Below, in pieces: positions 2,708-29,243 of a stretch of DNA of 32,000 nucleotides. The stretch is taken from NCBI GenBank assembly GCA_008080745.1, contig SHMX01000006.1, positions 90,001-122,000 of the forward strand, given 5' to 3'. The position numbers were made by a program, and so were the translations under genes. The notes below the pieces were generated by a model, which was given only the letters and a program-made list of their open reading frames with translations, had not been told where the DNA came from and made no database searches. Source of the stretch: Candidatus Thorarchaeota archaeon (GTDB lineage Archaea; Asgardarchaeota; Thorarchaeia; Thorarchaeales; Thorarchaeaceae). How positions within the stretch are numbered: position 1 is the first letter of the stretch; each line of letters begins with the position of its first letter.

Positions 2708-4618
2708 TTAGTAATGTACTAGTTTATCAGGTTTGAAATGCTCCCCACAATTTGGACAATTAACTTTTCCAAACATATCCTGTTGTGAAACATGATATGC
2801 TGAAGTTGTCCAACATTTTGGGCATATGACACCACCAGGTTTTTCTAATGATTTCTTAGGACCTGTACATAATACATTGAGATAGATTATGATTCCAATT
2901 ATTGCAATAATTAAGCCAATAATTCCACTTAGAAAGATTCCAATCAAAACACCAACTGTAATAACTCCTCTTGCTGCATCTATGTTTTCACTTTCTTTCC
3001 TTGATGAGAACTCTTGTGTAGGAGTATATTGGGGTATCTTACGGGGTCTATCTTCTACCATTTTACTCGGAAACTCTTGAGTTCTAGGTACAGCTTTTCG
3101 AGTAACAGGTTTTGATTCTTTAGGACGGGAGTATCTTCTAATAATTGTATCAACCTGTTGTTCATCAAGATTAGAATCAGATTTTAGACTCGATAATGTT
3201 CTTTCTCTATCTTCCTGTAAACTTTTCCTGAAATCTGAAATCCATTTACTACTAATAATCAAATCAGCTGACACAATTATTTGAATCTCATCAAATCGTT
3301 TGTATTGAAGTGCCCTAACTAAATCGTCAAGAGGTATCTCTAACCTTTCAGCCTCATCAGAAAGAAAAATGATATTGAGATTTTGAGCACGTTGGATTAT
3401 TTCCTGAAATTTTTTATCAACAGTTCTAATTGTATCATCTTCCGTTTTTAATATTGTCAATCTACTTGAAGCAAGAAGTTCTGTAAGAATATGACTTGGA
3501 AGATGAAAAACTTGTTCTAATTCACTCATAGTAGTATATTCTTGAGAAAGAAGGTACTCACTGACCTTATCAACTAGAATTTTTCTTCTGTAGCACTGGT
3601 AATCATCTGTGAAGATAAGGTCTGGCTCAGAGCCATCAGCTATTTGTTTAATTTTGTCGGAAGATACTCCACTTAATTTTGATAGTTTTTGTATGTCGAG
3701 ATGTCCATTTTCATTCAAAGAAGTTCCAATTTTTTCACTAAGCCATAGAAATGAAACAGCAAATTCACCATCTTGTGAAAGAATGACAATCGGTGAATCT
3801 TCCACAATTTTTCGAGTCTCTTGATCTGATTTTCCAAGAATCATCCTCAAATCAATTATCGAAACAATGTCGTTATCCTCCATTGCTTTTTCTAACGTGG
3901 ATTTTATCTTCCTTCGAGATAGAACCATTACAGCTCCAATCACTCCAATTAGCATCACTGCGGAAACACCACCGTAGATTGATACTGTCAAAACAGCTAA
4001 TCCGTTATCACGCTCAATTGTGATGGAAACGGTGTCTGAAAATTCTCTACCAAGTATATCGATAACGACTATTCTATATTCATAGATTCCAGGTGTATAA
4101 TCATTAATCTCAACAACTACATCATTGTTCCAATTCGTTCTCTTGTCAATTAGCTCATCATTCCTGAAAACCTCATAGGAAAAAGGATAATTGGAATTAA
4201 TAGTCCATTTAATGGTTTGATTTGTTGCGGTATCAAGAATTGTAGAATTGGATGCTGAAAATATGGAGAGACTACCAGTATAGACAAAAATCTCCACAGT
4301 CGAACTCCAATCACTCTTAAAGGTCAAGTCATCAACTGAACGAATCCGAACATAATACGTCCCATCTGCTAATTCTGTAAAAGTGTGATTCGTGCACGAG
4401 GTAGTGATTGAAGTTGAGTCGATAAAGTCATCTTCTTCATCAAATTCAAGCTGATATTCAATTACCGAACCATCTGGGTCTGAACATTCCAACCAAGTAA
4501 TTACAACATCCCTAGTTGAGCTCCGAATATAATCCGATGAAGGGACGGGAACCTCAGGTAAATCATTCTCTGGAAGGGCAACTACAAAAGAAGAAGTAAC
4601 ACTCCAAGAACTTGAGAT
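2708..4618 (-). pseudogene. 3' fragment of a disrupted membrane receptor: FN3-like, Ig-like, TM, tandem winged-helix repeats, TM hairpin, CxxC..CxxC Zn ribbon
   Basis: ORF 2708..4492 is open upstream to about 4618 (ISSSWSVTSSFVVALPENDLPEVPVP...VVITWLECSDPDG). GTYYVRIRS..KSDWS FN3 signature. TM at aa 165-192. CPKC/CPNC. Confidence 0.75.
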
Positions 4619-5085
4619 GCATATTCATTTGTGGATTTTATCCGAGTATAATAGGTTCCATTTGTAAGACCGCTAACTTCAATTGAAGTGTTTTCTACAG
4701 TATAAGAAGTAGGATCAGGAAATGAATCAGTTGTGTCTATGTGGATTGTATAAAAATCAATTGCGGCATCAACACACGTAGATTCATTCCATTCTATTAG
4801 CATGGTAGGTGTAACTACAGGGTCGGGGAGGCTTGTGAAATGAGGTGTTGTAGGAGTGGCTGATGTGACGTTCCACTCAAATGATTGAACGTGATCAGCA
4901 CCATAATTTGTACCATCATTCTCCATTGGTGACAAATCAGGACATGTGTCTCCATCCAGAGAATCAAAAGAGAGATGTAAAACAAGACCATCAGTAGCCG
5001 GATCAGAATTATCCATTGTCGACTCTATCTCTTCTTGTGTTAGTACTCGATTATAGATTCTTACTTCATCGATATACCCATAAAA
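4582..5085 (-). pseudogene. Middle fragment of the same gene: end of LamG domain plus FN3-like repeat
   Basis: FYGYIDEVRIYNRVLTQEEI (in frame, 5085-5026) is the canonical end of a LamG-like jellyroll. The FN3 repeat GTYYTRIKSTNEY shifts frame at about 4620. Confidence 0.75.
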
Positions 5086-5589
5086 TTAGTCACCTGAATA
5101 AGTACTATGGGGTTTATTTCCAATACATAGAATCACATCAGAAGTCATGAAATCTCCCGGTGTTGATGCGGATACCTGAAGTTCACCATTGTAAAATATC
5201 TCAGTATCAGTACGATCGAAAGTCCCCACAACATGGACCCACTCATTTGCAGGAGGTAGTGGGGTTTCAGCATGCCCATTTGTCGAGGCACCAAATTCCA
5301 TATTGCCTTCATCAATGAACCGATAGGATTTTTCTAGTATCCGTCGATTTCCAGCCCAATCAGTAGCTTTGATCCAGGCCATTGCAGTTATCTCTTCAGT
5401 TGGGTTTAATGATGAATCGTCTTGAACCACAACCTCATCTGAACCATCAAAGTACAACGCCATATTCGTTTCTTGACTAGTATTGAAATCTTTGATGAAT
5501 TGCTTTTCTCCAAATGATTGCTGATGCATTATTGGAAAAATCGAACTCATTACAAGTATTGTTATGACCAAAATCCTTCCTTTCATCAT
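5086..5589 (-). pseudogene. 5' fragment of the same gene: signal peptide plus LamG-like jellyroll, ending at a premature TAA
   Basis: Signal-like KGRILVITILVMSSIF. ALYFDG, ITAMAWIK, EWVHVVGTFD and IFYNGEL are LamG motifs. TAA at 5086-5088 interrupts GD*FYGYIDEVRIY. Confidence 0.8.
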
Positions 5590-5988
5590 ATATCCCTGAA
5601 AATATCAAGGTAGAAGAAAAGGATAAGTTATGTCTTTGCTAAATATAACATATTGATAGAAAATCAATTACAAAAACATACCAAAGTTGGATAGATAGAA
5701 GTCATAGATTTCGCAAAGTTTCTAGAATCTGTTCCAATCACGAATGATATCAAATCATTTTCCTTTTGAATTCTTTTCAAAAGCAACAAGGAGTAATTTC
5801 TGATATTGTAATAGATTCAATTAGGTTTTCTTTAACTCCAATACATAATATAGAGCATCCTAAACCGCATATACAATAATTTGAGTTCTATAAACTCTTC
5901 TTTTACTCGGAGAAAAGAAAGAGGATAAAATACTTACTTTTTCCCATTAGATAATATCATGGTTATGAAACAAATGTAACCAATTATT

Positions 5989-6049: not shown

Positions 6050-6427
6050 ATGACAGAAGATACTGTAGATGGCATACTTATGAACACAATTCTTCCAGTT
6101 CTAGAAGATGTAGATGACATAAGTAAGATTGAGGAAATAATAGAAACATGTAGCAAAGATGAGGTCAAAATTTTACGTTTCCTTTTTGAAATGTTTAGAA
6201 AAGACCAAAGAAGATTCCCAATAAACCAAGCGGGGTGGAGAAACAAATATAGAATCCATTTAGGAACGGATATCTCTCAGAAGAAAATTTACTCGGAAAA
6301 TGGACCAATCGAATCTTTGATGGAATTGAATCTGCTCGAAATTCGAGATTCTCCTAATAGATGGGGAGGCCAGAAATACAACTATCGTATTCATGTAACT
6401 AAAAATATGTTATCTTATTTTGAGTAG
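6050..6427 (+). CDS. Stand-alone winged-helix protein (TrmB-like HTH pattern; GWRNKY/WGGQKY family)
   Basis: YRIHLGTDISQKKIY...IESLMELNLLE resembles an HTH, followed by wing WGGQKYNYRI. Clear paralogy with 6499..7101 and with the C-terminus of 9069..11207. Confidence 0.75.
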   Translation: MTEDTVDGILMNTILPVLEDVDDISKIEEIIETCSKDEVKILRFLFEMFRKDQRRFPINQAGWRNKYRIHLGTDISQKKIYSENGPIESLMELNLLEIRDSPNRWGGQKYNYRIHVTKNMLSYFE

Positions 6428-6498
6428 GTAGATCTGATTGAATAATATTCCAATTAACAAAAATCCTATTAGTCTTAGTTCAGAGTACAGTAATTGGT

Positions 6499-7101
6499 AT
6501 GGAACAAATTCGTCAAATTGGCAACTCAACTCTTTCCAAAGAGTATTATCCGAATCCAGAAAACAAGAGAACAGTGAATATCTTATTGGAAGTTTCCATG
6601 CCGATTATCATGTTCTCGATTCTTTCTCTCGGTATTTCAATCATAATGCTACTTTATGCAGTTCTTATGATGCGAGGTGTTTTCGGTGCAAAATCTCGGA
6701 GTGATGAAGCTTTGAACCGTGAGAAGATATTGATTCCGGATTCCATTGCAAGGGAAATCACTTCAGATAACATTTTGAAATTTCTAGGTTCTCTACTTAC
6801 AGAGGACGAGGTAAGAATAATAATTTCATTAGCTAAGGCGATTATCACTGATAGGGGAAATTCCATTGAAGAAAACAGAGCAGGTTTACGAAACAAATAC
6901 CAAATTAGCTCTGAATCAGGTGTAGCACAAAGATCGGTCTATGATAAAGGAGGTCCAATAGACCGTCTTGTTGAAGTAGGAATCATCACTAAGATTGAAG
7001 CTGAAAAGAAAACTGGAGGGCAGAAATACCTCTATTCTCTTAGCAAAGAGAGTTATATTATAGCTCCACTCATCGCAGTGCTTGAGAGTAATGAAGAGTA
7101 G
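6499..7101 (+). CDS. Membrane-anchored winged-helix protein of the same family
   Basis: TM segment ILLEVSMPIIMFSILSLGISIIMLLYAVLMM, then GLRNKYQISSESGVAQRSVYDKGGPIDRLVEVGII...TGGQKYLYSL. Start codon uncertain. Confidence 0.75.
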   Translation: MEQIRQIGNSTLSKEYYPNPENKRTVNILLEVSMPIIMFSILSLGISIIMLLYAVLMMRGVFGAKSRSDEALNREKILIPDSIAREITSDNILKFLGSLLTEDEVRIIISLAKAIITDRGNSIEENRAGLRNKYQISSESGVAQRSVYDKGGPIDRLVEVGIITKIEAEKKTGGQKYLYSLSKESYIIAPLIAVLESNEE

Positions 7102-7140
7102 ATGTCTTGGGAAAGCCCTTTATTATGTAGGAGGATTATC

Positions 7141-9057
7141 ATGAAAACTACAAAGCTATTCAATATAGTCATTTGTTCTTTGTTGCTAGTTTTCATTTTA
7201 TATTCGGTTCCAAGACCCATTTCGCATCAAGCCAATTCATCATCAATTGCGATTTTACACAATTCTTCGGAGCCGATTACTATTAGAAATGAATCTGATC
7301 TGGTAGGTATGGATTTACCTGGAGGGGGTACACAAAGTAACCCGTTCTATATCGAAAATCTCCATATCCAAGCTTTCAATACATCTGCTCTATCCATTTC
7401 AGAAATAGAAAACTACTACGTAGTTATCAGAAACTGCATCTTCGAGTCAGTCACTGGTTTCCAATTCGTTTTGAATATAACACATGTTTTGAACTTGAGT
7501 ATCGACAATTGTTCATTACGATGTAATCAAGCACCTGCAATGAATGTAACAGATTGTATTAATCTCGAAATAACAAATAGTAAAATAGATGGAGCAGGAG
7601 CTATGTTTTGGTTTTGTACCAATCTCGAGCTTATCAAAAATGAGATTGGCGATTTATTTTCCTCATCTGCAACATACGCATCAATTAAATCATTAGCATT
7701 AGTATTCTCGGTTCATATGGAAAATTGTACTTCTGTGAGATTCGTTGACAACTGGATTCACAACACTCCAACTCATGGATTGTTCGTTCGTTATAGTAAT
7801 TCTATCAATGCTTCAGGAAACATCATTGAATCTCTAGCATCATGGTCGTTTTATTTTTCAAGAAGTCATGATATTGCGGTTTATGAAAATGCAATTTATG
7901 ATACTGATTGGGTACCCATTCGTTTCTACAAATCTCATAACTGTGAAGTTATCAATAACGATATCCAGAGAAGTGGAGAATGGGGAATTTATCTTGTGGA
8001 AGTGAATCAGACGAAAGTTATCCAAAATCATATCGCAAATAGTCATTTTACGGCGATAGCAATAGAAAATTCGAGTAACTGTGAAATTCTTGATAATACA
8101 ATTCGAGATGTAGAATCGAACGGTATTTCTATTGAAGATTCAAATCATCAAAAGATAGTGAATAATTCAGTAATTACTACCATGCATAATGGAATTCATG
8201 TAAGGTATTCTAGTGAGATAATTCTTAGTGAATGTTTTGTTAAAGGTTCATTATATGATGGAATAGTCTTCGACATGATAACTAATGGTAACATTTCAGA
8301 TTGTTATATAGTTGAATGTTTGAGAGAAGGTATCTTCTTCTATCAGACAAATTCGAGTGTTATTCATAAAACATGGAGTGTGGATAATTCATTTTCAGGT
8401 ATTCGATTAATACTAAGCAATAACATATCAATAACAAATAACTCGTTGTGCCGAAACGATGAATTTGGGATATCGCTATCAGAAACAGAATCATCGAAAA
8501 TATGCTACAATAGAATTGGACTCAACCATCAAAGAGCCTTCGACGATGTCGGAAACAATCAATGGAATTGCACAGATTTTGGAAATCTATGGTATGCATT
8601 CAATGGTCTTAACGATTCATCAACTTCAATTTTGGGATCCTCTAAGGCTTACGATTTTCATGCATATCGATGGTCTAGAACTATTCCCAACATCACATCA
8701 ATATCTCCGAGCCATATAATCAAACAAGACTTGGAAATCTTTGTCTTCGAGTTAGAATCACCAAATCTAGAATGGTATAAAATTTATGTAGACTCTGATG
8801 AAACAGTTTCACGTTGGGGACCAGCTACGACAATACGAACAACTTTGAATCTAAGTGTTGGAACGCATAACATAACGATCTGGGTTATCAACGCATTTGG
8901 AGAAACTAACTCAGTGTCACAGATAATTACCATTCATCCTGCTGAAACTAACATTAATGAAGAAGTCATAGTTTCAATAATCCTAATTTCAAGTGGGATT
9001 ATCCAACTTGTTGCTAGTTCTATCCTAGTTCTTGAAGTGAAAAAAATGAAAGAATGA
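7141..9057 (+). CDS. Surface protein: signal peptide, NosD/CASH beta-helix, Ig-like domain, C-terminal TM anchor
   Basis: AGGAGG at 7129-7134 supports ATG 7141. Cap motif PITIRNESDL..DLPGGGTQSNPFYIE. About 22-aa I-x-x-N-x-I repeats with GI-x-L. DDVGNNQWN..GNLW. TM VIVSIILISSGIIQLVASSILVL followed by a basic tail. Confidence 0.85.
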   Translation: MKTTKLFNIVICSLLLVFILYSVPRPISHQANSSSIAILHNSSEPITIRNESDLVGMDLPGGGTQSNPFYIENLHIQAFNTSALSISEIENYYVVIRNCIFESVTGFQFVLNITHVLNLSIDNCSLRCNQAPAMNVTDCINLEITNSKIDGAGAMFWFCTNLELIKNEIGDLFSSSATYASIKSLALVFSVHMENCTSVRFVDNWIHNTPTHGLFVRYSNSINASGNIIESLASWSFYFSRSHDIAVYENAIYDTDWVPIRFYKSHNCEVINNDIQRSGEWGIYLVEVNQTKVIQNHIANSHFTAIAIENSSNCEILDNTIRDVESNGISIEDSNHQKIVNNSVITTMHNGIHVRYSSEIILSECFVKGSLYDGIVFDMITNGNISDCYIVECLREGIFFYQTNSSVIHKTWSVDNSFSGIRLILSNNISITNNSLCRNDEFGISLSETESSKICYNRIGLNHQRAFDDVGNNQWNCTDFGNLWYAFNGLNDSSTSILGSSKAYDFHAYRWSRTIPNITSISPSHIIKQDLEIFVFELESPNLEWYKIYVDSDETVSRWGPATTIRTTLNLSVGTHNITIWVINAFGETNSVSQIITIHPAETNINEEVIVSIILISSGIIQLVASSILVLEVKKMKE

Positions 9058-9068
9058 CAAAACGGTAT

Positions 9069-11207
9069 TTAGCTCAAATCCAACATTATTTGAAATATCA
9101 GATTTTCGATGTTGATTCGATATTTAAACCTCTGACCACCCCAATTACAAGAAGTATAATTCTCTGAAATTAGGGTATTTTTCAGTAATGAATACATCAC
9201 ACCATTTTGACTGTAAATTTGCCGCTTGGACACCTTGGCTCCCATATGTATCTGGTATTTATTTCTCCATCCATATTCGTAAGGAGTTAATGAGTAGTCA
9301 CTTGCTAAGTCTTGGAGGAATTCATTAAATAGATAATAAATAACAGAATACATTTCACGATTGAGAATACTATCAAGAAATTTCCAACACCTATCGATTG
9401 TAAGATTTGAGAATATACGTTGTAAATTGATTACCAAGTATTGTGAGTAGGGGTACATCAGTGTACGTTCCTTGATTTTTTCTAATAATAGAAAAGCCAC
9501 GCCTATAGGAAATATAATAAGAACGAAGATTTTCAAGATTGGGGTCAGATTAGATAGAATCAATAGTGGAGGTTGTAATTCGTAATCAAACGTATTCGTG
9601 CTATTGATATTACCATCAAAATCTTGGACAATAATTTCAAATTGGATAACACTGAAACTTCCAATCATAATATCTGTTGACCAACCACATTCATTTTTTG
9701 TCATCTCTGTAACATTCCAGATATTGGATGAGTCAATCGAGTAATTTAACCTCATTATTTCAATTGAAGAATTAGTGGAAGCAACAATTGTTACATTTGA
9801 CATATCATGGTAGATTTCCAAATTCAAGGATATCGAAGGAGGTTTATAGTTAATAGACTCCCTCATACTGATTACGACATCAACACTCATGATAGGATAA
9901 AGGTCTTGTATCCCGAATTCAATTGTGTAAGGTTCGTCAGCAATAAGATCTCCGTCATCATCTTCGCCCTGATATGAGGCATAATAATTTCCGTATTTCG
10001 CATTACAGAATTCTATGAAACCAAGTTCTGTACCACTGATTAAATCTGAGGAGGGTTGAATTAAAGCGTTTACGAAAACTCGTCCAGAACTTTCCCAAAA
10101 ATTCATGCTCGTAAGCATTGACCGATTTATAATATTTCCAAAGATACAGACGTTCTCTACTTCAGTACAAGATAGACCCCAACCTTTTGACATTATAATA
10201 TCATTCAGAACTATATCGATTCCTCCAGATCTATAAATTTCAATTCCATCTCCACTTGAATAGTATACAGAATTAGATGAAATGGTAATATCTTCAGTAT
10301 ATTGAACCAATAAAGAATGACAATTCTCCAATGTGTTATTTTGAATATTGCTATCAATACACTCAAAGAACCTTATTCCTGAGCGATTGGATTGTATAAT
10401 GAGATTGTTACTGAGAGTTGCATTTTTTGTTCTGCAAACATAGATTGCATTTTCATTACTCGACGCAATGGTATTGCAAGATATTATGGAATTGTTTGTG
10501 GTGTCAACGAATATACCATTAAGAGATGATTCAAATATTGAATTATTTTTAATATATATATCTGAACTCTGAATAACATCAATCGCATCGCCATTCGATT
10601 CAAACAGATTTCCGAAAATAGTAACTTCTGATGCATAAGCGACTTCAATCCCAATATTGGATCCCGAAATGTTATTGTGAGTCAGGATTGTTTTTTGTGC
10701 TTCATGGACTTTTATGGCTCTTTTAGGCTGATTGAAAAAGGAACAATTTTGAACGAGCGAATCAAAACCGCTAATATGAATTAGCTCCTTTGTTATATAT
10801 CCTGCATAGAACATGCAATCAATGAGTTCGACGATAGAACCTTCATGGGAAATAAAATACCACTCAAACTCCTCAATCGATCTAATGTACGTGTTTTCTA
10901 GTTTCAGGAAACCACCGTTTTTTACTATGATATTGCAATAATCTTGAGTAGCAATTATTGTGCAATTATCAAAGAGTATTCTTTCGTCTTTAGAAATATA
11001 AATTGAAGTTTCTAGTTCGAATATTTTGTTGCGGTAGACACTTGTGTAATCATTACTCTTCTGCTTAATCATGTTAGAATCAAAGTGAGATGAGTAGGGA
11101 ATAATATCAGGGAATCCAAAAATAGAGGTGCCAAATATCTGTAGGGAAAATAGTGATAGGAATAACAATGAAACTATTCGTTTACTATCAAATCCTGCCC
11201 TTCTCAA
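9069..11207 (-). CDS. Single-pass receptor-like protein: NosD/CASH beta-helix, Ig-like domain, TM, cytoplasmic winged-helix domain
   Basis: TTG start with GGTGTGA upstream. N-terminal hydrophobic segment. Beta-helix repeats ending in GNYY..YQGEDDDGDLIADEPY. TM ILKIFVLIIFPIGVAFLLL. C-terminal GWRNKYQIH...IYSQNG...WGGQRFKYRI. Confidence 0.85.
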   Translation of the reverse strand: MRRAGFDSKRIVSLLFLSLFSLQIFGTSIFGFPDIIPYSSHFDSNMIKQKSNDYTSVYRNKIFELETSIYISKDERILFDNCTIIATQDYCNIIVKNGGFLKLENTYIRSIEEFEWYFISHEGSIVELIDCMFYAGYITKELIHISGFDSLVQNCSFFNQPKRAIKVHEAQKTILTHNNISGSNIGIEVAYASEVTIFGNLFESNGDAIDVIQSSDIYIKNNSIFESSLNGIFVDTTNNSIISCNTIASSNENAIYVCRTKNATLSNNLIIQSNRSGIRFFECIDSNIQNNTLENCHSLLVQYTEDITISSNSVYYSSGDGIEIYRSGGIDIVLNDIIMSKGWGLSCTEVENVCIFGNIINRSMLTSMNFWESSGRVFVNALIQPSSDLISGTELGFIEFCNAKYGNYYASYQGEDDDGDLIADEPYTIEFGIQDLYPIMSVDVVISMRESINYKPPSISLNLEIYHDMSNVTIVASTNSSIEIMRLNYSIDSSNIWNVTEMTKNECGWSTDIMIGSFSVIQFEIIVQDFDGNINSTNTFDYELQPPLLILSNLTPILKIFVLIIFPIGVAFLLLEKIKERTLMYPYSQYLVINLQRIFSNLTIDRCWKFLDSILNREMYSVIYYLFNEFLQDLASDYSLTPYEYGWRNKYQIHMGAKVSKRQIYSQNGVMYSLLKNTLISENYTSCNWGGQRFKYRINIENLIFQIMLDLS

Positions 11208-11600: not shown

Positions 11601-11774
11601 ATGAGTAAGAAAATCAAAAAGTTTGTTAGTGTTCTTGGCGGTAAAGTAGATGTCACCTGCGATGAATGTGGTGGCAAGATGCGTCCAGGCGGTCACTATC
11701 AATTAGATCATGGCGATGACAGCTACCAGTTCTGTAGTGAGAAATGCATGGAAGCCTACGAAGCCAAGATGTAG
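11601..11774 (+). CDS. Small TRASH/YHS-type metal-binding protein (57 aa), absent from the ORF track
   Basis: MSKKIKKFVSVLGGKVDVTCDECGGKMRPGGHYQLDHGDDSYQFCSEKCMEAYEAKM*. C-x2-C-x21-C-x3-C with FCS. GGGAG upstream and a hairpin downstream. Confidence 0.85.
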   Translation: MSKKIKKFVSVLGGKVDVTCDECGGKMRPGGHYQLDHGDDSYQFCSEKCMEAYEAKM

Positions 11775-23062: not shown

Positions 23063-23236
23063 CGTTTTGATCAGCTGTTGCATACCCTTTAAGCTCTCCG
23101 TATTCTTCTCATAGTCAGATTCAATATCTGTCGGAAACTATCAATTCATAAACAAGTCATTTTGCTTCAACCACAATCCTTTATCAAAAAAAGACATACC
23201 AAGCCTAAGGAATCCAAAAAAGTCTGTGATACTAAC

Positions 23237-24763
23237 ATGAAATTCTCATCTTATTTTCTATTACTGGTTATCCTTCTACTGCCGATTCCTGTACTGCACT
23301 ATGGAAATGTAAACATAGACACCTACAGAGATATAGGACCGTTAGAAGATTCAGGTCGAGAAAGTCAAGAACAAAACGAAGGATTAGTAACATGGACAAG
23401 TCCAAAAGTAACAACCCCTGTTAGTCTGGCTAATAATTCAGTCATAACTGGAGATCATATAGAGCTGAGCATTAACCCAAACCTATTCGAGTATTCAAGC
23501 TACACATCAAAGATCTACGTCGAAACGACAGGATACATCAATCACACATATACAGGTGAGTTAGTTGTACCCGATACCAACTATGATTTCACGAATTCCC
23601 CGATATATGGTTATGAAGACCAATATACTTGGATTGAGGTCAAAGGTCTTAGGCAAGGATTTCCAGTATATTTGACTGGTAATTTCACCAACGAAGATAC
23701 AGATTTCTTTGGTTGGCAAGGAAACATTGACCCGGAGGAATATACCTATCTGTATAATACCTTAGGAGATAGAATGGTTTCAAAGAGTAAACCAGAAACA
23801 GCCACAATCTATTGGAGTTATCCCTCTGATACTCTCGTAATTGCCATATTCTCTTGGAGTCACGATTCTGGAAATTTTAGTCTTCATGTTGAACAGGGAA
23901 GACATTGGGAAGAAACCAATGAGAACCTTCCAGCAGAATTTGACTCTTATCAAATGGGTTCCAACTACAGTATCAATCTTGAAGCGTTTGTGTCTTCATC
24001 GAGAGGTAATATCTCTCAATATTATGTTAATGTCACCCTCCAGAATTTCTTTGCTCCACAAGTAGAAGATATCCAATTGCATGGCAATCAGACACATGTT
24101 GAAGTTAGATGGTCAGTTCTTGATAGAAATATCAATGAAACTCATATATGCGAAATTCATATCTCAAGAACCAGATCCACCAGTAGTTCGTTGTTAGGGT
24201 ATGCGTTCAATGATGACTGGTTTTTCGAGTATAATACAACTGACCTGCTTCTTGCTGATGATTACTATTTAATCATCACTGCCATAGATTCAGGGAATAT
24301 TCAAGGTTCAGAAACAACAGGAGAATTTACCGCTGGAGACGTCTTCCAGACTCCAGCTAGAATTGTGAGAGAAATCCAATTAATAGGGCATTCCTTGCTA
24401 TCATTTGTTAACGGGTCTGAAGGAAATCTGTTGAGATGGGTCGTATCTGGAAATTTTTCATTTCAATACCAGATAGTAATTGATGGTTTAGTGGTAAGAC
24501 ATACTATCTGGAAAGAAGGCCCAATTGAAATAAATTTAGATTATTTGGAACAAGGTGAACACCATGTAATTGTGCAAGCCTCTTGTGCAGTCCAATCAGC
24601 ATATGGGAAAGCGGAAACAATGGTTATCGTATATGATCCGATGCTAAAAAACAAGGGATATCTAGATAATGAGTTTATTTCAGCAAGCGCCGCTATATTG
24701 ATTCTAGCTCTTTCGATGGTTATTGTAGAAGTCACTATTTCTCGGTCACCAATTGAAAAATAA
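23237..24763 (+). CDS. Single-pass surface protein (PPC-like and Ig-like domains), paralog of 27720..29243
   Basis: Signal peptide MKFSSYFLLLVILLLPIPVL at ATG 23237. C-terminal TM FISASAAILILALSMVIVEV. Collinear motifs with the 27720 gene. Confidence 0.8.
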   Translation: MKFSSYFLLLVILLLPIPVLHYGNVNIDTYRDIGPLEDSGRESQEQNEGLVTWTSPKVTTPVSLANNSVITGDHIELSINPNLFEYSSYTSKIYVETTGYINHTYTGELVVPDTNYDFTNSPIYGYEDQYTWIEVKGLRQGFPVYLTGNFTNEDTDFFGWQGNIDPEEYTYLYNTLGDRMVSKSKPETATIYWSYPSDTLVIAIFSWSHDSGNFSLHVEQGRHWEETNENLPAEFDSYQMGSNYSINLEAFVSSSRGNISQYYVNVTLQNFFAPQVEDIQLHGNQTHVEVRWSVLDRNINETHICEIHISRTRSTSSSLLGYAFNDDWFFEYNTTDLLLADDYYLIITAIDSGNIQGSETTGEFTAGDVFQTPARIVREIQLIGHSLLSFVNGSEGNLLRWVVSGNFSFQYQIVIDGLVVRHTIWKEGPIEINLDYLEQGEHHVIVQASCAVQSAYGKAETMVIVYDPMLKNKGYLDNEFISASAAILILALSMVIVEVTISRSPIEK

Positions 24764-27719: not shown

Positions 27720-29243
27720 TTGACATCGAGAGAACTGACAATAATTCTTGTAGGCATACTAGTTGGTTCGATACTATTTACTTATTCCCCAACGAACAAT
27801 CAAGTTATCCATTACACTCTCAAACCTGACGAATCAACCGTGCTCACAGATACACCCGAAGGACTCTTGAAATGGTCAAGCTATGAAATATCTACACGAG
27901 AACCAGTTTATGATAATAGCACTATTGTAGGAGATCATATTACTCTACATTCTTCACCGACTCCACCAGATGGAAGAATTATCGATAGTGTCGAACTGAA
28001 GGTTCCCAAAGAGATATTTCATAATTCTACCTACGACTTGGTTATTCCAGATCCGGACTTTGATCCTTTTGGAGCGGTATTTTCTCGATATGACTCAAAC
28101 TTTCAATGGGTAGTTATTCAAGATATAGCAATTGGTTGTACTGTTCAAGTTAAAGCTACATTTTCAAATGAAGATGTTGATGTAATGGTATGGCACGGAG
28201 GACAGAATCCTGACAGGTATTCATATGATAACAACATCATAAGTGGTCAAATGGCATCGCAGAATAATCCTGAGATAGGACAAGTTGAATGGTTCTTTCC
28301 AAATCGGACGATGATTTTGGCAATCTTTGATTTCACTGAAGAAATGGGAAATGTCACAGTAGAGATTACTAGCATAGAAGAAAGCCTAGTGTCTGGTACA
28401 GATAGTATCACCTATGAGACCTATTATTTTGAAACCAACAGAACTGTCAATCTTACCATATCATATTCGTTAGATAATGGAAGTCACTATCTCTATGATT
28501 TCAAAAATATTACTTTTCAGAATTTCTTTTCTCCAAAAATTACTGATTTACAAATAACAAATAACGATGCTGTATTTACGTTTGCATGGAGCATTCAAGA
28601 TAGAAATGCCTATGAGTTCCACACTTCAGATGTCTTCCTTTCTTCAGATGACGGTAAAACATTTTTGCGCATATCTTCAAATTTGAATGAATCTGAATTT
28701 ACATTTGATATGACTGGATTCTTGAATAGGGAGTATTATCTAAAGGTTATAGTGACTGATTCAAGTGGTCTTTCTGGAGAAAAAGTGGACATGTTTTCTT
28801 TATCTCCACCAGTCAATCCGCTCCTATTAGGTGTTGAACCCGTGGAAGATATGGTTATTGAATTGGGGTCCGTTGGAAATGTAATAACTTGGAATTTGGA
28901 TATTGAAGGTAATGCAATTTGTCAGTACAGAATTGTCGTAGACTCCGTTCAAGTAATTCAAAGTACCTGTTATGATGGAACTATTCAGTTCAATCTTGAT
29001 AGTCTACCAGTAGGGACCCATGATGTCAATCTAGATGTATGGATGTCGGAAGTGAGACATAGTGATACAGTTGTAGTGATTGTTGTAGAATCTGGAGTTC
29101 CAATATGGTTGCTTGTGAGTTTGGGATTGACTTTATTTGGAATAACCATCATGGGTATATTTCTATACAAAATTACAGATGCAAAGAAAAAGCGCTTGGG
29201 TAAATGGAGTTTAGAAGATTTGCTTGAAGAGAAAACCAACTAA
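27720..29243 (+). CDS. Single-pass surface protein, paralog of 23237..24763
   Basis: TTG start, N-terminal hydrophobic segment, GDHI, FQNFFSP and WSIQDRN motifs shared with the paralog, and C-terminal TM plus KKKR. Confidence 0.8.
   Translation: MTSRELTIILVGILVGSILFTYSPTNNQVIHYTLKPDESTVLTDTPEGLLKWSSYEISTREPVYDNSTIVGDHITLHSSPTPPDGRIIDSVELKVPKEIFHNSTYDLVIPDPDFDPFGAVFSRYDSNFQWVVIQDIAIGCTVQVKATFSNEDVDVMVWHGGQNPDRYSYDNNIISGQMASQNNPEIGQVEWFFPNRTMILAIFDFTEEMGNVTVEITSIEESLVSGTDSITYETYYFETNRTVNLTISYSLDNGSHYLYDFKNITFQNFFSPKITDLQITNNDAVFTFAWSIQDRNAYEFHTSDVFLSSDDGKTFLRISSNLNESEFTFDMTGFLNREYYLKVIVTDSSGLSGEKVDMFSLSPPVNPLLLGVEPVEDMVIELGSVGNVITWNLDIEGNAICQYRIVVDSVQVIQSTCYDGTIQFNLDSLPVGTHDVNLDVWMSEVRHSDTVVVIVVESGVPIWLLVSLGLTLFGITIMGIFLYKITDAKKKRLGKWSLEDLLEEKTN

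Follow-up and report, generated by a model that had tools for sequence, protein, structure and literature searches.

A lineage-restricted family of predicted winged-helix domains with soluble, membrane-tethered and receptor-fused forms beside surface-protein genes of Thorarchaeota

Transcription factors of the ToxR, CadC and TcpP type are single-pass membrane proteins in which a cytoplasmic winged helix binds DNA while the protein remains anchored. In these factors an OmpR-type winged helix forms the N-terminus and a periplasmic sensor forms the C-terminus. The RsgI and SigI proteins of cellulolytic clostridia represent a different arrangement, and are referred to as polysaccharide-sensing anti-sigma systems. 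To our knowledge, archaea have no sigma factors. In MalT/LAL regulators, the helix-turn-helix (HTH) output domain is located at the C-terminus. Among archaea, ArnR and ArnR1 of Sulfolobus acidocaldarius are paralogous, membrane-bound one-component HTH activators of archaellum and pilus genes, and ArnR is composed of an N-terminal HTH, HAMP-like and sensor domains, and two C-terminal transmembrane (TM) helices (PMC6396743).

Signal transduction and gene regulation are almost uncharted in Asgard archaea, and these organisms are not yet genetically tractable. The thorarchaeotal locus described here comprises four genes, referred to as A to D, in the window, i.e., the whole 32,000-nucleotide stretch of DNA that was analysed. 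Gene A (6050-6427, plus strand) encodes a 125-aa protein that, judged from the ORF list and hydropathy, is a soluble (S-type) form of a predicted winged-helix (WH) protein. It consists of an acidic N-terminus (residues 1-35) and the WH domain (25-125), and a TM segment was looked for in it and not found. Gene B (6499-7101, plus strand) encodes a 200-aa, T-type paralog, in which ~33 aa lie outside, followed by a TM segment at residues 36-54 (6604-6660), basic residues directly after it, a flexible linker, and a cytoplasmic WH domain at residues 95-193 (6781-7077). Gene D, also on the plus strand, extends from 7102 to 9057; its ORF adjoins the stop codon of B, and an ATG at 7141 is the likelier start. 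The product, a type-I membrane protein, combines a signal peptide and a NosD/Beta_helix ectodomain with a C-terminal TM segment (626-644), beyond which only a 7-aa tail remains. Gene C (9069-11207, minus strand) encodes a 712-aa type-I membrane protein with a signal and an outside part of ~500 aa, of which residues 126-430 (9918-10832) form a Beta_helix/NosD ectodomain. Its TM segment (557-575; 9483-9539) is followed directly by K/R residues and then by an S-type WH domain at residues 600-712 (9072-9410), within an inner tail of 137 aa.

An earlier note, made from the sequence alone, had described A as soluble, B as tethered, C as carrying a large ectodomain and D as lacking a tail. This predicted arrangement agrees with hydropathy and with the positive-inside charges. 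By the positive-inside rule, a membrane anchor and a cytoplasmic, predicted DNA-binding domain are combined in one polypeptide in both B and C. The ectodomains match Pfam Beta_helix/NosD models (E = 7e-20 for C and 9e-30 for D), exceeding the gathering scores of PF13229 and PF05048 with 71.6 and 71.9 bits, respectively, for C and 103.9 and 102.7 bits for D. They are not NosD proper, since at 59 bits they do not reach the NCBIfam cut-off of 300 bits for the NosD subfamily. Identity between the C and D ectodomains is only ~25% within the repeats, which rules out C as a recent duplicate of D plus A. Genome-wide, only ~14 beta-helix genes are found in 3.16 Mb. The cytoplasmic part of a neighbouring LamG receptor (2708-4492) was also considered as a relative of the WH family and was ruled out (probability 0.4%). 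The sequencing runs listed for the region are two DNA runs from one marine-sediment study, from which the sequence probably derives, and no RNA run is listed.

The feature common to A, B and the C-terminus of C is a collinear domain of ~100 aa. Pairwise BLASTP comparisons gave E-values of 8e-20 for A and C (34% identity over 85 aa), 4e-15 for A and B, and 8e-14 for B and C, far beyond chance, so that the sharing of a domain among three proteins holds. All four ORFs are also as the earlier note described them. Motif glycines had been placed at positions 6233, 6883 and 9272 (minus strand); these coordinates are exact and correspond to G62 of A, G129 of B and G646 of C. Fifteen columns of the domain are invariant, among them G.RNKY, Y81, GGQ and Y, and the wing bears W-G-x-Q-K, in agreement with the GGQ motif previously assigned to it. 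Both conserved Trp residues are lost in B (GLRNKY, TGGQKY) and in its ortholog from G336, a genome of the same genus. Two more copies of the domain are located elsewhere in the genome, beyond the window. One, on contig C9, is an orphan T copy, a TM-tethered protein of 201 aa encoded beside a PRTase-like gene; the other, on contig C1, is a pseudogene with an in-frame TAG. A Pfam lead connected with the PRTase-like neighbor (“wHTH-PRTase associated”) was dropped, as all scores were below threshold.

No Pfam or NCBIfam model reaches threshold for the domain, and its named members are “hypothetical”, in keeping with the earlier reader's inability to assign it to a named family. A, B and C show no match to the Pfam TrmB model (PF01978) at E up to 1, and the model is matched weakly by eight of 37 family members (best E = 0.0018, below the gathering score). 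Alignment by hhalign to two genuine TrmB proteins of the same genome gave probabilities of 39.8% (E = 3e-4) and 2%, the better-scoring alignment being in register across H2, H3 and the wing. MarR models are absent from the Pfam matches of A, B, C and the 37 members. For Lrs14 and Sta1, B scored 17.8 and 14.9 bits in the wing region, short of the NCBIfam cut-off of 80-90 bits. A, B and the tail of C are assigned to a previously unnamed, lineage-restricted family of basic, putative winged-helix domains in Thorarchaeota (Asgard archaea).

Matches to the family amount to only 43 representatives among 1.84 billion. It is nearly limited to one Thorarchaeota family, and is present in 18 of 85 genomes. 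Two subfamilies are resolved in the tree, one soluble (S) and one N-terminally anchored (T), the latter with just 5-50 aa outside. A lies within the S clade, and the tail of C falls inside this clade together with its G336 ortholog (support 97/90). The receptor-fused form represented by C is limited to this genus, where it occurs in two genomes, G336 included. A receptor-fused circuit, which the earlier note had envisaged, is therefore not the general unit; rather, the unit consists of a soluble and a tethered paralog beside tail-less surface proteins. Distant homologs of the domain occur in other Asgard families at the C-terminus of AAA_16/NB-ARC plus TPR proteins of 1060 and 1149 aa (hhalign probabilities of 94.7% and 91.4%). 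Small TM proteins encoded downstream of these STAND-TPR-WH genes were ruled out as relatives of T (hhalign probability 0.1%). Also rejected were P0041 and P0043 from the wide search, which are Ig-repeat proteins and false positives arising from repeated GGQR, and the feature-based matches in the ESM Atlas (phage proteins, translation repressor), which are at chance level.

In AF2 models, A has a mean pLDDT of 86.5, with most of residues 25-125 above 90, and residues 58-200 of B have a pLDDT of 82.6, with the first ~21 residues below 50. The cores of both exceed 90 and are modelled as confident winged helices of one topology: H1, b1, H2, a short H3, an insert, H4, b2, wing, b3 and a C-terminal helix. 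The flanking N- and C-terminal helices are present in the models, but short. The winged-helix (wHTH) fold that had been proposed from the motif pattern is thus also the fold predicted for the domain in A and B, and structural matches point the same way. In the VIA comparison, A matched the C-terminal winged-helix domain of ORC2 (5c8h) with a Z of 11.2 (rmsd 2.3 A over 95 residues, spanning 21-125) and MarR-type BpsR with a Z of 9.8. For B, the MarR family leads (Z = 9.8) and the ORC2 WH is sixth (Z = 8.9). Many MarR and ArsR structures reach a Z of 8-9.8 with both proteins, the best 50 VIA matches are nearly all WH, and the fold-search matches are mostly DNA-binding regulators (MarR, ArsR/SmtB, TrmBL2, Cdc6/ORC). 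Foldseek searches of the PDB yielded no match at E 0.001 or better, though the top matches are all WH. When the family profile was used for a sequence search of the PDB, no match was significant; RovC (E = 0.71) and uS4 (E = 0.76) came closest. The ORC2 match indicates fold and not kinship, because its lead over the next matches is ~1.4 Z.

Of note is that H3 is only 4-5 residues long in the models (A 77-80; B model 87-91), or about one helical turn, and is followed in both by a conserved loop (Y-x-x-x-G) and then a second helix. A 3-residue insert in the recognition helix is likewise placed by hhalign against a TrmB protein of the same genome, as the earlier note had claimed of this helix. 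The 56-aa core from GWRNK to the wing has a median net charge of +7 in S and +5.5 in T, with a pI of ~10; its flanks are acidic, and the pI of full-length A is 5.5. Conserved residues occupy the places usual for DNA contact, namely R-N-K before H2, S-Q-K in H3, and R, W-G-x-Q-K and Y-R in the wing. A complex prediction for A with the cytoplasmic part of B scored 0.00 in both runs (subfamily alignments A3 and A4, run without controls), a value that argues neither for nor against contact between them.

Eleven loci were examined for gene neighbourhood; they are not independent samples, because relatives share synteny by descent. A T gene is located beside or near an S gene or its remnant in nine, and in seven the S and T genes are convergent, with 3′ ends that overlap or nearly touch. 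A Beta_helix/NosD type-I membrane protein is encoded within one or two genes in nine loci, and different glycan-type surface proteins are found in the other two. Since the genes are kept together near surface-protein genes, the possibility that they are never co-located in relatives, which would have counted against the earlier note, falls away. No recurring Pfam-recognisable protease was found in the 11 neighbourhoods. A small 4-TM protein with no Pfam match recurs next to T in some loci.

A candidate cis-element is located upstream of A at 5909-5945. It consists of GGAGAAAAG (5909-5917) and, after a 19-nt spacer in which GATAAAAT is found, the inverted partner arm CTTTTTCCC (5937-5945). Only a few blocks are conserved in G336, and they include both the right arm and the GATAA centre. 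The element resembles a dyad, G.GRAAAAAAG-GATAGGT-CTTTTTCTCC, that is conserved in three other genera, in each of which it sits in the divergent intergenic region between the S and beta-helix genes. Two of these genera contribute four loci, of 9-18 kb each, that have a single near-exact copy of the dyad, invariably in this spacer; for the third genus, the alignment shows no more than a degenerate version. Neither the window nor G336 contains the dyad with its 7-nt spacing, and the window has a looser relative only, such that the element upstream of A is a weak candidate on its own. An initial search for palindromes common to the upstream regions found none, and the 10-mer GGAGAAAAAG shows no enrichment across the window, with 5 matches vs. 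3.6 expected and none of them near the genes described here.

Because these genes lie beside surface-protein genes in relatives, the products of A, B and C probably regulate such neighbours. The reading as a whole, to which we assign a probability of roughly 0.5, is that the proteins act as local DNA-binding regulators of surface-protein genes, with membrane-held paralogs. It draws on the shared domain and its predicted fold, the basic core with conserved residues at the usual DNA-contact places, the C-terminal position of the domain in the distant STAND-TPR homologs, the gene neighbourhood in a genome with few beta-helix genes, the dyad, and the precedent of ArnR and ArnR1. An old duplication would have given rise to the soluble subfamily (S, including A) and to T (including B), predicted to be held at the inner membrane face by one N-terminal TM helix and a flexible linker. 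The S and T genes have stayed together, with genes for beta-helix or other glycan-type surface proteins anchored in the membrane as their neighbours, and in this genus an S-type domain has been joined to the cytoplasmic end of one such surface protein to form C. In the mechanism considered most likely, the S protein would bind DNA through its basic HTH-plus-wing face and serve as a local regulator of the adjacent surface-protein genes, with the conserved dyad of the common promoter region as its site of action. The forms held at the membrane (T, and in this genus C) would tie this control to the membrane or cell surface in one of two ways: they would bind DNA while anchored, like ArnR, ToxR and CadC, or they would titrate the soluble paralog. 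Several points argue against a regulator. A modelled one-turn H3 before a conserved loop is unusual for a major-groove reader, several good structural matches are protein-binding winged helices (MksE/JetB-like, Rio2, YceH), and the conserved dyad could be a bidirectional core promoter instead of an operator. In addition, A as a whole is acidic and matches the ORC2 WH best, and the window has just the looser relative of the dyad.

The same structural matches bear on a different function, in which the winged helix is a protein-protein adaptor, and S and T are its soluble and anchored subunits. Such an adaptor would link the short cytoplasmic ends of surface proteins, or the membrane, to a sorting, secretion, glycosylation, cytoskeleton or ESCRT machine. 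The ORC2 WH domain tops the structural matches of A (Z = 11.2), and protein-binding winged helices (JetB/MksE-type, the Rio2 N-terminal WH, YceH and Nse1-3-4) are among the good matches. A conserved insert that splits the recognition helix, the direct fusion of the domain to a surface-protein tail in C, and conserved neighbours that are surface proteins and not only obvious regulatory targets would all be at home with this function. However, the HTH-plus-wing face is strongly basic and conserved, and the domain also forms the C-terminus of STAND-TPR proteins, a position at which a DNA-binding output is usually found. A conserved dyad adjoins the S genes, and an S gene divergent from its neighbour is the typical layout of a local regulator. 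An adaptor role is regarded as possible but doubtful. RNA binding, in the manner of La-type winged helices or uS4, would instead place control at the translation or stability of surface-protein mRNAs. The surface is basic, a weak collinear two-block match to eukaryotic uS4 covers G.RNK..I and the following helix (E = 0.76), and the top named Atlas match is a phage translation repressor family (0.90, a score reached by 4-10% of random sequences). Both of these matches are at chance level, though, and that to uS4 requires a ~17-residue deletion; the fold predicted is that of a canonical WH, with DNA binders as its structural neighbours, making an RNA-binding function highly improbable.

In the circuit envisaged by the earlier note, the beta-helix ectodomains would sense a ligand outside the cell, and the tethered WH domains of C and B would be released by regulated proteolysis or swap partners with A, thereby switching transcription without a kinase; the ligand would probably be a glycan. 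C, with its ectodomain, TM segment and WH tail, is built like a one-component transmembrane receptor; the ~20-30 low-confidence residues that follow the TM segment of B could serve as a cleavable tether, and the co-location of S, T and beta-helix genes is conserved. Set against this circuit are the restriction of the fused form to two genomes of this genus, T forms with almost no extracellular part, and the lack of a recurring Pfam-recognisable protease in the 11 neighbourhoods. Moreover, C-terminally anchored proteins of the beta-helix/NosD type are frequent among archaeal surface proteins, and a sensor function does not follow from this architecture. The full circuit appears rather improbable, and the interpretation of the earlier note as a whole is partly supported. 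A related idea, which seems unlikely, is a kinase-free transmembrane module in which glycan-binding surface proteins would act via a soluble transcription factor and a membrane-tethered paralog serving as decoy or co-factor, with sensor and transcription-factor domain fused into a single receptor (C) in one genus. If true, it would constitute a switch by paralog sequestration, a kind of regulation not known to have been described in archaea.

Under the preferred reading of local DNA-binding regulators, an Asgard lineage would couple its cell surface to transcription without kinases; an adaptor role would instead be a lead to cytoplasmic-side machinery for handling surface proteins. The family is compact, new and clearly marked by its motifs. 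Its soluble and membrane-tethered members are organised in pairs, their association with surface proteins is conserved, and both a candidate operator and a naturally occurring receptor fusion are available. It provides grounds for a new Pfam-type family and for better annotation of “hypothetical” genes in Thorarchaeota MAGs.

Compared with known regulators, the family shares with MarR, TrmB and ArsR wHTH proteins the same predicted topology, flanking N- and C-terminal helices and a basic HTH-wing face. It differs from them in its own invariant motifs (GWRNK before H2 and WG.QK..YR in the wing), the interruption of the recognition helix by a 3-residue insert, a longer wing, and the existence of membrane-tethered and receptor-fused forms. 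The ORC2 WH (5c8h), while the best structural match of A, shows 10% identity and no sequence signal. In MalT/LAL STAND regulators, the C-terminal output position is that of the WH in the distant AAA_16/NB-ARC plus TPR homologs, but the MalT output is a LuxR-type HTH, and the three proteins of the window are without NTPase or TPR. RsgI and SigI offer a parallel in that the membrane partner is single-pass, bears an extracellular carbohydrate-binding module and works with a soluble transcription factor in the cytoplasm, and in that the genes adjoin those of surface glycan-active proteins. However, the inner anti-sigma domain of RsgI is unrelated to its sigma partner, whereas the tethered and soluble proteins here are paralogs from one WH family. 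C resembles ToxR, CadC and TcpP in having an outside domain, one TM segment and an inside WH, although its domains come in the opposite order and its WH family has no sequence relationship to theirs. Finally, ArnR and ArnR1 are likewise archaeal paralogs with a membrane anchor and a cytoplasmic HTH, and they control genes of cell-surface structures, as is proposed here; in the present family, the TM segment lies at the N-terminus in T and behind a large ectodomain in C, neither a HAMP nor a recognised sensor domain is present, and one paralog is soluble.

Four open reading frames (ORFs), all present as the earlier note had described them, make up the cluster. By simple hydropathy scan, A (6050-6427, +; 125 aa) has no transmembrane (TM) segment and B (6499-7101, +; 200 aa) has a single one at residues 36-54. 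D (7102 or 7141 to 9057, +; 651 aa counted from the first ATG) and C (9069-11207, -; 712 aa) each have a signal-like segment and a C-terminal TM segment, at residues 626-644 and 557-575, respectively, and their Beta_helix/NosD ectodomains score well over Pfam thresholds. A and B are separated by 71 nt, the D ORF abuts the stop of B, and C follows in convergent orientation. Since basic residues come after the TM segments of B, C and D, the positive-inside rule would place the winged-helix (WH) parts of both B and C on the cytoplasmic side.

Anchored surface proteins are abundant in the window. A LamG surface receptor gene occupies the other flank (2708-5589, -) as three same-strand ORFs that look like one large, interrupted gene: one with a signal and a Laminin_G_3 domain (5086-5589, -), a middle part (4582-5016, -), and a last part with a TM segment at residues 172-190 (2708-4492, -). 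The cytoplasmic part of this receptor was ruled out as a WH-family relative (hhalign probability 0.4%). Two proteins without a Pfam match (23162-24763, + and 27720-29243, +) likewise combine a signal-like segment at the N-terminus with a C-terminal TM segment. Divergent from C is a 57-aa Cys-rich ORF (11601-11774, +; CxxC ... FCSxxC, zinc-ribbon or TRASH-like), whose DNA, unlike the flanking spacer, is strongly conserved in the same-genus genome G336.

The domain common to A, B and C aligns over ~100 residues without large gaps, with 15 invariant columns (pairwise BLASTP E-values of 8e-20 for A-C, 4e-15 for A-B and 8e-14 for B-C); the motif glycines previously placed at 6233, 6883 and 9272 (-) agree in position for all three. 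For A, B and the C tail, every Pfam and NCBIfam model stays below threshold, and publicly named members are annotated "hypothetical protein" of Candidatus Thorarchaeota, in keeping with the earlier note, which could not place the domain in a named family. When a profile of the three copies was searched against 1.84 billion cluster representatives, only 43 proteins matched at E <= 0.001, two of them Ig-repeat false positives. Marine sediment is the source of the window's DNA, and named contigs bearing the domain are Thorarchaeota or Promethearchaeota MAGs. Matches occur in 24 of 400 genomes of the phylum; the counts are 18 of 85 within the window's GTDB family and only 5 of 315 elsewhere in the phylum.

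AlphaFold2 models of A (37-row family alignment) and of the cytoplasmic part of B (residues 58-200; 22-row alignment) reached mean pLDDT values of 86.5 and 82.6, with cores >90. The topology is identical in both: a pair of N-terminal helices comes first, then a single-residue strand at W-R-N, H2, and an H3 of just one turn; a conserved loop leads into another helix, and a beta hairpin, the wing, precedes the C-terminal helix. In an exhaustive structural comparison, A matched the C-terminal WH domain of ORC2 best (Z 11.2; rmsd 2.3 Å over 95 residues) and B the MarR-type BpsR (Z 9.8); dozens of MarR, ArsR/SmtB, Cdc6/ORC and TrmBL2 domains came next at Z 8-9.8. Foldseek matches were of lower significance (E > 0.01), yet every one was a winged helix, and AlphaFold DB returned family members on top, then annotated HTH regulators. 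Sub-threshold TrmB matches were found in 8 of 37 members. With hhalign, the family profile aligned in register with a TrmB protein of the same genome (probability 39.8%, E 3e-4), showing a longer wing and a recognition helix that carries an insert of three residues; a second TrmB protein gave a probability of 2%. The models, structural matches and insert therefore bear out the earlier reading of a winged helix with an insert, but not membership of TrmB, MarR or Lrs14.

Members are of two types, soluble (~105-146 aa) and N-terminally tethered by one TM segment (~175-230 aa). A maximum-likelihood tree of 54 domains sets a soluble clade, S (97/90 support), apart from the tethered forms, T; the sole cleanly discriminating position is Y67 in S versus His in T. 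B and its ortholog form a long branch with both conserved Trp replaced, and the first 20-30 residues past the TM segment are disordered in the model of B, resembling a flexible tether. Within S, the C tail pairs with its same-genus ortholog at 100/100 support. Because its ectodomain only distantly resembles that of D, C is a separate beta-helix surface protein that gained an S-type tail, only in this genus.

Besides A, B and C, the window's genome holds a tethered copy on contig C9 and a pseudogene on contig C1, which makes five copies in all. The orphan T-type copy (C9:31391-31654; L004 1213-1818; 201 aa) is away from any beta-helix gene, flanked by a DeoC/LacD-type aldolase gene and a weak PRTase-like gene, a three-gene layout repeated in G336 (L023). 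The decayed gene (C1:583579-583929; L005 about 1440-1790) has in-frame TAG stops, one within the WG.QK wing motif.

Gene neighbourhoods were compared at 11 loci, the window and ten relatives, spanning five genera. At nine loci, an S-type gene or its remnant has a T-type gene next to it or close by, and seven of these have a convergent pair with 3' ends overlapping or almost touching. In the window's genus, the pair is in tandem, followed by D and convergent C, and G336 is collinear with the window. A type-I membrane protein with a Beta_helix/NosD ectodomain is one or two genes away at 9 of 11 loci; the remaining two have anchored surface-protein neighbours with GlcNAc-2-epimerase-like, CBM56, FG-GAP or LamG domains. 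This association is beyond chance expectation, given only ~14 beta-helix genes in the 3.16 Mb of the window's genome, with the loci related by descent and thus non-independent. The convergent overlap measures ~21-27 nt in three genera (L036 5801-5821, L037 6935-6955, L038 9270-9290, L039 8569-8589, L040 8743-8769) and could cause mutual transcriptional interference. A small 4-TM protein (139-151 aa) without a Pfam match adjoins the T-type gene in several relatives (L036 4592-5047, L038 8011-8445, L043 1520-1939) and is absent from the window's cluster.

When spacers between divergent S and beta-helix genes were aligned for three genera, conserved blocks appeared within otherwise unalignable DNA. 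The main one is a dyad, G.GRAAAAAAG-GATAGGT-CTTTTTCTCC, followed by two more half-site copies. A scan allowing one mismatch found the dyad at four loci in two genera, a single time in each locus of 9-18 kb and nowhere but in the S/beta-helix spacer, including one genome (G325) with the gene pair in opposite orientation. For G327 and the third genus, the alignment shows no more than a degenerate version. The exact form is absent from the window and G336; the window has a looser element, GGAGAAAAG (5909-5917) facing CTTTTTCCC (5937-5945) around GATAAAAT, whose right arm and centre belong to the small number of blocks that G336 also conserves. The conserved dyad could act as an operator or as a symmetric core promoter; in both cases it links the S gene to its neighbour.

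Family, fold, topology and cassette can be regarded, with high confidence, as established by computation. As to function, we put at roughly one in two the probability that the S protein is a local DNA-binding regulator of adjacent surface-protein genes, which membrane-held paralogs would modulate. In favour of DNA binding, the 56-residue stretch that starts at GWRNK and takes in the wing is strongly basic in the family as a whole (pI ~10, median net charge +5.5 to +7), between acidic flanks. The residues that are invariant or nearly so also count in favour: R-N-K where H2 begins, S-Q-K within H3, and, in the wing, R, W-G-x-Q-K and Y-R. The HTH of MalT/LAL regulators is C-terminal, and distant homologs of the WH domain occupy this same position in AAA_16/NB-ARC (STAND) proteins with TPR repeats from other Asgard families (L056 1280-4462; L057 365-3814), where they keep the GWR motif and reach hhalign probabilities of 94.7% and 91.4%; this, too, was counted in favour. 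Each of these two STAND genes is followed by a family-less, small single-TM protein unrelated to the T forms.

Against DNA binding count the split recognition helix of the models, the best structural match of A, a WH domain not mainly known as a DNA reader, and several good matches that are protein-binding WH domains. A role as a protein adaptor, to which these matches would point, is nonetheless rather unlikely beside the basic core. The full kinase-free circuit of the earlier note, with ligand-sensing ectodomains and WH domains that are released or heterodimerize, is less probable still, and RNA binding highly improbable.

The fold and the concept of a membrane-bound winged-helix regulator are already known. 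New are the WH family itself, which has distinctive motifs and neither a model nor a name; the pairing of soluble with tethered paralogs; the conserved association with beta-helix surface proteins and with the dyad element; and the natural fusion of the domain to a surface protein. An archaeal precedent for the regulatory reading is provided by ArnR and ArnR1 of Sulfolobus, paralogous membrane-bound HTH factors that control surface structures, although their domain order differs from that of the present family (PMC6396743).
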